Below, in pieces: positions 35 to 8,971 of a stretch of DNA of 64,000 bases. The position numbers and the translations under genes are program-made. How positions within the stretch are numbered: position 1 is the first letter of the stretch; each line of letters starts with the position of its first letter. The notes below the pieces were generated by a model, which was given only the letters and a program-made list of their open reading frames with translations, ran no database searches and was not told the DNA's origin. The stretch covers positions 11,904,001 through 11,968,000 of the forward strand of contig OZ231126.1 in NCBI GenBank assembly GCA_965153355.1, given 5' to 3'. This DNA comes from Flaccisagitta enflata (lineage: Eukaryota).

Positions 35-3000
35 AAAAATTGTCCGGGACAGACAGGCATACAGACACGAACCTTGGAGGCGGAAACTACTTCGACTTTG
101 AGGATTATGATAACTTTCGACTGTCTGACTCTGAGGCGACACTTTCACCCCCTATTAGTGGTACAGTAGTTCTCATCCAGACTTGAGATGATGGATGCTG
201 GCATGGCACGGAGATGGATGATGCCAGGGAGTCAAATTTGGAATATACATGAGATGTAAAAAGAAACAGTCGCCAAAGGGCAATAGTGGTCAGCGGTACC
301 CATTGCCCTGCAGGGCTAGCGACCAAGAAGGGTAACGGCCTCAAAGGGGACAAAGTCTTGCATAACACAGGGGGATTTTTGTTTGTCTTACCTGAGAAAG
401 TTGATGAGATGCTACAGCAAGCTCATTGAGGGCCTATGATAGCCTGAAGAGTTCCTCATAACTGATTCTGAGCCCAAGAATAGTAGCTAGGCTGAATTTA
501 AGCCAAAGAAGGTTGATTTGAGGCTGAAGGGGGCTGAATTAATGTCTGAGGGTGCTGAGTTGAGGATCAGATGGACTGATATAGGGCCTGATTTGAAGAC
601 ATATGTGTATGTCCGTGTTCTACAGGACTTTTTCCCCTTTGGGACAGCTACCCTAGAAGACACGGTATTCATCAACCTCGTCGGTTACAATGATGTCATA
701 TATCCGTATTTCACTCTAAACATTTTATTATGAACATACATTCTTCGGAAGCATTGATCAGCATCAGATACCATCTAGGAAAAAAGTTTAGCAACACTTA
801 TGGTTGACAGTATGTTTTGCCCCCTCATATTCACAAAACTTTTGTTTTTGATTGTTTTTGGTTATTTTTAGTCGCGTGCTACGCGACTCTACACCCCACT
901 TTGTCAGTCCGTCGGTCCGTCGGTCTGTCCGTTGGTCCGTCCGTCCGTCGCAATTTACTTTTTCGGCATTGATGGGGTTTTTGGCTATGGCGCTCCTGCC
1001 CAAATGCTCAACTGACCTCTAATATGGCCCCTGCCCACCCGCACGCGACTGGTGTAGCCGTGTATCCGGCCTTGTTGTAATTATACTAACTAGAACAAAA
1101 GAGAAAAACAATTTTTAATCCAATATAGGGACCGTGAGTTTGGTTTGTTTATCACGACCAATAGGTGGTTGCCGTAAAATCAATAAATTTTTGGTCATTT
1201 TGACTGCAAAATTCGGCTACTTCTCATTTCAAATCTGCCTTAAAATCCATGAGATCATTTAACTAGAGCTCAAGAGCTAACCAGCAGTGAAATCCGCATG
1301 TCTTCATCATTTTTTGGTAGAAATAAAAAGAATTTCAAAGATGGAAAGGTAGGAGTCCCATTTTTTGCCATTCTTCAAAGTATTTGATCAACTTCAAACT
1401 AATGGCATTTCCAAACGGTTTGATGCACAGCAAAGAGATTGCACTCAGATTGTAGATCTTTTGATGTAGATTAAAGTGCTCATGAATTTTCTACACCTAT
1501 CTAAATGAAAAGCTGAGATATCTCTCTTTAAAGGTGTTGCTAAACATATTTTCTAGATAGTATGTCTAATCTTTCACTTACATACATAGTTACATACCTA
1601 CATACATACATACATACATACATACATACATACATACATACATACATACATACATACATACATACATACAAACATACATACATACATACATACATACATG
1701 CATACATACATGGATACATACTTACATACATACATATATACATACATACATACATAATACGTACATACTAACAAATACAATGGTATATGTTCTGCTAGAA
1801 TGACGCTCATTGGGTCGTTGCTAAGGACCGTCAGAGATGAATATGTTGGCCATGTATTCGGCCTTATTCGTATTACTGCAAATGCATACAGTATGTTTCA
1901 ACTCTTTTGCAGCATTTTACGACGGCATGATTCCTGGAGTAATAGAGATGAATTAATTTTGAAAAAAGTCTTTGATAGGTAATAGTTTGGCATTTCATAG
2001 TAGTTGATTCCGGTGACTTTCTGGTAAAATCTAATCCTCTTAACATCTCATGATCTTAAAATTATGCAATGCAAAGTACTAAGCTATTTTGTTGTTATGG
2101 GAAAATTTTTTTTCTTCAAATTGATCTTATTTTGAAAGCATTTTGAGATTTTTATACCAGATAGGTTAAAAGTATAAGATATTTTGTTGTTGTTCATAAA
2201 ACGAGAGAAAAAAATTGTCCATGGATGTAGTTTGATGAAAAAAGGAGAGAAAAATGACCTTTTTGGGCAGCGGCCCCAAAGGGGACGAAGTCCTGTAGAA
2301 TACAGGGGGACTTTCGTTCATTCGTCCGTGTGTTTGTTTGTTCGTTTGTTTGTCCCCCCCGGCCCCCTCATCAGGCCCTTCAGGCCTCAAATCTGGCCTC
2401 TGAGACCTCAAATCTGGCCTCTCAGGCCTCAAATTCAGCCTCACAGGCTTCAAATCCAACCTCTCAGGCCTCAAACCTGGCCTCTCAGGCCTCAAATTAG
2501 GCTTCTCAGGCCTCAAATCCAGATTCTCAGGCCTCAAACCTGGCCTCTCTGGCCTCCAACTAGGCCTCTCAGGCCTCAAATTAGGCCTCTCAGGCCTCAA
2601 ATTAGGCCTCTCAGGCCTCAAATCAGCTATCAAAGCCTCAATTTATTGCTCTCAGTCCTCTGCCCTTTCAAGCCTTAATCCAGCTCTCTCAAGCCTCCAG
2701 TCAGCCTTCACAAGCTTCCAATTAGCATTCTCAAGCCCACATCAGCCTTCTTAGACCTCAGTATAGGCTCTTGGAGGCCTTCAGTCAGCCCTCTATACCA
2801 TCTCATCCACTTCTTCAGGCAGGACGAACGAAAGTCCCCCTGTGTTCTACAGGACTTGGTCCCCTTCGGAGCCGCTGCCCTGCTTCCCCTCACTCCAATT
2901 CACAATCACTCAAAGCAGGGCAACGGGTATAGCTGACCACATATTGCCTTTGGGCGACCTGTTTTTGCATTATTCGACACCAACCTCCTTAGGGTGTGAA

Positions 3001-8971: not shown

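Follow-up and report, generated by a model that had tools for sequence, protein, structure and literature searches.

Background

Exon shuffling in Metazoa is described as having worked with a few dozen ancient domain types of class 1-1, and modules of this class are mostly extracellular (PMC8001218). Here we describe a putative gene of five exons (E1 to E5; Table 1) that lies at the start of a 64,000-nucleotide (nt) stretch of the Flaccisagitta enflata genome, hereafter the window (contig OZ231126.1, positions 11,904,001 to 11,968,000, or G000:C1:11904001-11968000 in our numbering; assembly of 794 Mb in 9 contigs). The predicted product combines an APT-like module (E2+E3), a six-Cys module that we call CPQCGC (E4) and a module of two six-Cys repeats (E5). 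With the kringle, LDLa, EGF and SRCR proteins treated by Patthy (PMC8001218) the gene has in common that phase-1-flanked modules occur in changing combinations and with extracellular features, and it may likewise possess a signal-peptide exon with a phase-1 donor. Unlike the classical class 1-1 types, its three modules all fall outside Pfam families.

APT domains (PF03440), known as domain 1 of aerolysin and from S2/S3 of pertussis toxin, are lectin-like and bind glycans (PMC12002313, PMC8047071). The E2+E3 module is of similar size (about 80-88 amino acids (aa), against a model of 87 positions). Unlike the toxin domains, it is split by an intron, adjoins SRCR, kringle and oxidase exons, and has no pore-forming or AB5 part that we could find nearby. 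The biomphalysins, aerolysins of snails, likewise represent aerolysin-related parts in an invertebrate, where they serve recognition and immunity; their arrangement is the reverse one, with a lytic large lobe retained and a small lobe without lectin motif (PMC8047071), whereas the window gene has a domain like the small lobe and no large lobe was found.

A probable mosaic of three reused modules

The initial annotation had described the locus as an exon-shuffled mosaic of extracellular modules, and the genome bears this out: all three modules recur elsewhere, with phase-1 edges and among different neighbours, which are same-strand genomic neighbours and not partners in a cDNA. APT-like copies have three SRCR exons on their upstream side and one SRCR and one CPQCGC exon on their downstream side (L029/L030), follow SRCR and kringle exons (L031/L032), precede an FAD oxidase as a tandem pair (L033), or come after signal-like exons (L024, L028). 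At L063 the E5-type module has phase-1 edges and forms part of a bigger mosaic, where exons for kringle, CPQCGC, LDLa and EGF are lined up on the same strand. The neighbourhoods at L029/L030 and L063 thus place APT-like with CPQCGC modules, and CPQCGC with E5-type modules, together at other loci.

The principle of shuffling is known; the three modules and their combination were not found in Pfam, PDB, the ESM Atlas or the literature searched. No Pfam family was matched by the exons, their relatives, the half-domains or the CPQCGC family, and sequence searches of PDB (queries A1, A4 and A2) returned chance matches or none, with chance matches alone in the case of the CPQCGC family. Neither a description of the CPQCGC or the other modules nor a combination of aerolysin-type, lectin-like, SRCR and kringle parts was found in the literature searched, which lacks most subscription papers. 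The three modules seem to be lineage-restricted.

Exon structure and splice sites

The predicted structure of five exons with AG/GT ends, four phase-1 introns and the internal lengths listed in Table 1 is upheld, and the frame is open throughout. Because choosing splice sites for an open frame is partly circular, each edge was subjected to an independent test. The E2 donor occupies the same phase-1 position in all eight copies examined and in a ninth, and the E3 acceptor fits the second exon of five of eight other copies; homologues of this second exon are present at L015, L017, L019 and in both repeats of L033. Phase-1 donors at 4626 and 4671 are alternatives for the 3' end of E3. A scan of 39 kb, whose coding model had been derived from other genes in the same genome, ranked E4 top with exactly the edges predicted before, a rank that is favoured by the presence of CPQCGC exons in the training set. 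E5 came second and E3 was also recovered with exact edges. The E4 donor is strong (96th percentile) and of phase 1, and thereby fits the phase-1 acceptor of E5, which stands at the 99th percentile among 489 AGs. For E1 the acceptor and donor reach the 94th and 84th percentile, respectively, and its place as an exon of the gene is plausible.

When the region 1-9200 of the window was compared by blastn with other loci, 49% of it was masked but none of the exon sequence. The N-terminus of P0007, from another assembly, skips approximately positions 8030-8300, just before the E5 acceptor, and the GGGTTA-rich repeat at this place in intron 4 likely carries an insertion/deletion polymorphism of about 270 nt.

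Table 1. Exons, introns and flanking elements of the putative gene (positions in the window unless a locus is given).
Feature	Position	Strand	Description
Candidate signal-peptide exon	L005:1813-2050		8.2 kb upstream of the window; Met, hydrophobic stretch, basic sites, phase-1 donor
E1	35-160	+	126 nt; candidate 1-1 exon; 41 residues, acidic and Cys-free; resembles a linker or propeptide; least secure exon of the model
E2	3338-3505	+	168 nt; first half of APT-like module (FK.V...PWRLA...helix...W.IA.L.DG)
E3	4558-4656	+	99 nt; second half of APT-like module (G.GYGW...KLLI) and Cys-bearing tail
E4	6005-6169	+	165 nt; divergent member of the unnamed six-Cys CPQCGC class 1-1 module
E5	8322-8971	+	last exon; encodes 215 aa with two six-Cys repeats and a terminal Cys pair; stop 8969-8971
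Introns 1-4	within 161-8321	+	all phase 1; 3177, 1052, 1348 and 2152 nt; rich in dispersed repeats
Putative 3' untranslated region	8988-9383	+	RNA library contigs; possible polyA signal ATTAAA at 9472

The APT-like module

The assumption that every exon equals one module does not hold, as E2 and E3 together make up a single one. Its APT-like label is weakly supported, by the fold predicted for a half-domain: the only structural match of the E2 model is to aerolysin residues 7-70 (6% identity), and a match at the level of profile hidden Markov models was not obtained. The half-domains and the genome gave no match to PF03440, the intron-split module having been scanned in halves, nor did PF03440 match in 4 + 401 bacterial genomes. 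Foldseek found no counterpart of the E2 model in PDB or the viral library, and the ESM Atlas yielded no usable match for E2. We regard homology of the E2+E3 module to APT domains as fairly probable. A metagenome scan with E2 led to a single locus, a bacterial oxidoreductase-like open reading frame (ORF) that shares a short word with the query and was rejected.

Two of the other APT-like copies deserve mention in their own right. The copy at L014 (G000:C7:68532309-68532455) has an in-frame TGA, lies beside its intact near-twin L016 and is probably a pseudogene. At L033 (positions 4585-6597, minus strand; G000:C8:52.007-52.012 Mb) two APT-like repeats are followed by an intronless oxidase with FAD_binding_4 and ALO domains, which shares 43-44% identity with proteins from two bacterial metagenome-assembled genomes; the oxidase may have been acquired horizontally and had a targeting module grafted onto it.

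The CPQCGC module

A search with the CPQCGC-type exon next to the APT-like copy at L030 returned at least 86 genomic matches. Of 25 loci, which include several near-identical duplicates, 23 have best-scoring edges of class 1-1. Such exons, mostly 1-1, are distributed genome-wide (L035-L059). In an alignment of E4 with 14 family members, 14 columns are invariant, all six Cys among them, and E4 scores 10.5 bits against the family, compared with a maximum of 6.7 among 499 scored shuffles. A profile search of 3329 local ORFs placed E4 at rank 2 with an E-value of 0.58. Given this local E-value, the absence of E4 from the 86 matches and the fact that E4 as its own query found only itself, we consider it a divergent member of the family.

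The initial annotation had called this exon ShK-like. ShK domains end in the spacing C-x3-C-x2-C. E4 shares with ShK/ShKT (PF01549) six Cys, a short exon and three Cys clustered C-terminally; in the family, unlike in ShK, the module is longer, its core YG..W...G.F...D..GR is conserved, and the C-terminal spacing is C-x2-C-x-C (C-P-x-C-G-C), which departs from that of ShK. PF01549 was detected in none of the 15 family members at E<=1 and not in E4 at E<=10, so that the label has to be given up.

The two-repeat Cys module

E5 is rich in Cys (14) and in Trp and Tyr (28 together) among its 215 aa. It has three paralogues in the genome, and a search of 1.84 billion proteins returned five matches. 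One is the window gene itself; the other four are related proteins, 230-281 aa long, whose N-termini look signal-like and which contain no other module. Other assemblies contain E5 intact, with at most one change. Among known proteins, E5 is best compared with P0002-P0005 and P0009, an unnamed set of short secreted Cys proteins that possess its two six-Cys repeats and GD.PC linker at 29-35% identity over the aligned part. These proteins consist of signal, propeptide and module only, whereas in the window gene the module comes last, behind other modules, and is not interrupted by an intron. The predicted model of E5 is poor (a predicted local distance difference test score, pLDDT, of 49); fold searches with it gave nothing meaningful, and the ESM Atlas no usable match.

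Upstream region and RNA evidence

It had been suggested that an effector domain, for example a pore-forming one, lies upstream of the window. We took 80 kb of upstream DNA and scanned the nearest 40 kb for ORFs of at least 38 aa on the plus strand. The 265 ORFs comprise 140 repeat-masked and 125 unmasked ones, and after one was dropped at the end of the stretch 124 were compared with Pfam. None reached the cut-off, and the suggestion is not supported, within a scan that a divergent effector in short exons could escape. Profiles of the three modules detected no clear additional copy in the upstream region. The candidate signal-peptide exon, with a hydrophobic 9-mer value of 3.3 and a coding score of -4.0, did not appear in the strict scan, and together with E1-E5 it would yield a complete protein of 481 aa. 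That the gene begins with this exon falls a little short of an even chance in our judgement. E1-E5 contain no hydrophobic 19-mer.

Contigs from a marine RNA library (X1) cover positions 8988-9232 (1 mismatch in 245) and 9232-9383, immediately downstream of the stop codon, at low depth and with DNA carry-over as a possible source; the word share of 0.11 in this run is no evidence of habitat by itself. Other genomic matches to 8975-9400 extend over at most 157 bases at 68-87% identity, and no near-identical copy is present among the scored candidates.

Proposed product and competing explanations

The best reading of the locus, to which we would give an even chance, is a single gene for a secreted, non-lytic, multivalent binder with a role in mucus, matrix or innate recognition. 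Exons E2-E5 would be co-spliced, probably together with E1 and the candidate signal-peptide exon, into a soluble product of about 481 aa without transmembrane segment, in which a signal/propeptide, a linker, the APT-like module, the six-Cys CPQCGC module and the two six-Cys repeats would follow one another. The gene would have arisen by recombination within introns, which joined class 1-1 modules widely reused in this lineage, and its product would be non-enzymatic and stabilised by disulphides. By analogy with the APT of aerolysin and pertussis toxin, the APT-like domain might grip glycans of cell surfaces or microbes, the aromatic-rich Cys modules could contribute additional binding or tethering, be it in mucus, in the matrix or in body fluid, and the protein would act beside the SRCR and kringle proteins that bear the same modules.

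Several observations weigh against this reading. In two RNA runs (X1, X2) no joint was found at any predicted intron, the exons had almost no coverage, and almost all placed reads fell on dispersed repeats. E1 has a coding score of -13.8, lay outside the 28 exon candidates listed in the 39-kb scan and had no paralogue in the genome search; in a minus-strand control, one of 18 1-1 candidates equalled its splice quality (about one per 19 kb). The intron that follows the signal exon at L004 appears to be of phase 0, so that class 1-1 does not hold for all copies of the E5 module. The absence from X2 is weak evidence, because 6% of this run was read and most placed reads were 90-95% alike. We consider co-splicing of the exons likely.

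The locus can also be explained in other ways. On the one hand, two genes may be present, with E5 as the last exon of a short secreted gene that has its own signal exon and E2-E4 as another transcript or as left-overs. All four database relatives of E5 are stand-alone proteins, the RNA evidence is confined to the 3' end, and no fused form or longer homologous protein was found with queries E2, A1 and E5, in weak searches confined to longer proteins. Against this, a scan at strict thresholds between E4 and E5 showed no first exon of signal-like character with a phase-1 donor of good score, which favours a single gene; moreover, the phase-1 donor of E4 has no other evident downstream exon than E5, and the E5-type module is internal in the mosaic at L063. 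We consider two genes unlikely. On the other hand, the exons may be genuine in origin and no longer transcribed as a unit. The missing coverage in both RNA runs, the degenerate state of E4 relative to its family and the in-frame stop in one APT-like copy would agree with such decay, yet no frame is interrupted, other assemblies have kept E5 intact, an RNA library includes the 3' flank and the absence from X2 counts for little, so that we rate a silent gene as very improbable.

Alternatively, the gene may be intact and have a different function. A venom or prey-capture toxin, in which the APT-like part targets prey cells, the Cys modules have ion channels or proteases as their targets and a pore-forming part possibly lies upstream, would agree with small disulphide-rich modules, with the basic sites of the upstream candidate exon (a possible propeptide), with the fold match to the binding lobe of a toxin and with a possible resemblance of the E5 repeat to insect Tha p 2-like proteins. 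We hold it to be improbable all the same. ShK was matched by none of the 15 members of the CPQCGC family, no toxin family was matched in the family searches, and the 124 upstream ORFs held no pore-forming or enzymatic family. PF01117, the large lobe of aerolysin, was not detected in E1-E5 by Pfam scan, nor anywhere in the genome, where the control was blank as well. A surface-recognition protein is preferred to a venom because no pore-forming toxin part was found, and a general extracellular toolkit fits because the same modules, one with about 86 copies, adjoin SRCR, kringle, LDLa and EGF exons. A matrix protein with a structural or adhesive task (in cuticle, egg coat or glue), whose modules cross-link a matrix instead of recognising microbes, would explain the wealth of Tyr, Trp and Cys and the lack of a catalytic domain, and a laccase gene occurs about 55 kb upstream, probably by coincidence; low-complexity structural repeats are missing, and the partner exons elsewhere are mostly of receptor or recognition types, which makes this function rather unlikely, too.

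Wider meaning and neighbouring genes

It is conceivable, and we put it forward tentatively, that this lineage minted mobile class 1-1 modules of its own: the CPQCGC module with 86 copies, the two-repeat Cys module and an APT lectin derived from a toxin. A bacterial aerolysin-type protein would have been the source of this lectin, which came over without the pore-forming lobe, acquired phase-1 introns and was added to SRCR, kringle and bacterial-type FAD oxidase proteins as a glycan-targeting tag, the window gene being the copy that carries all three modules. The genome appears to hold three further unnamed and actively shuffled modules, one of them in about 86 copies, which makes a test of how new modules arise possible. 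If the APT homology is true, the receptor-binding lobe of a bacterial toxin would now serve an animal for recognition as a module of its own, and the biomphalysins would be its mirror image.

The laccase-like gene upstream is a long multicopper-oxidase ORF (L010:6693-8495, plus strand), and the minus strand about 25 kb upstream has two unnamed ORFs (L007:3040-3867, 276 aa, and 4107-4745, 213 aa). Within the window, a separate gene at 12628-15461 (+) has a signal-like start and Ig-like stretches with a sub-threshold Ig match. Two overlapping ORFs of 245 and 343 aa in different frames (58264-59777, +), without a Pfam family above the cut-off, are possibly a mobile or virus-like remnant, and lipase (PF00151) exons are located at 60323-61072 (-). 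An unusual single intronless ORF of 884 aa at 20765-23419 (+) joins a Cys-bearing, extracellular-looking N-terminal region to an XK-related membrane domain.
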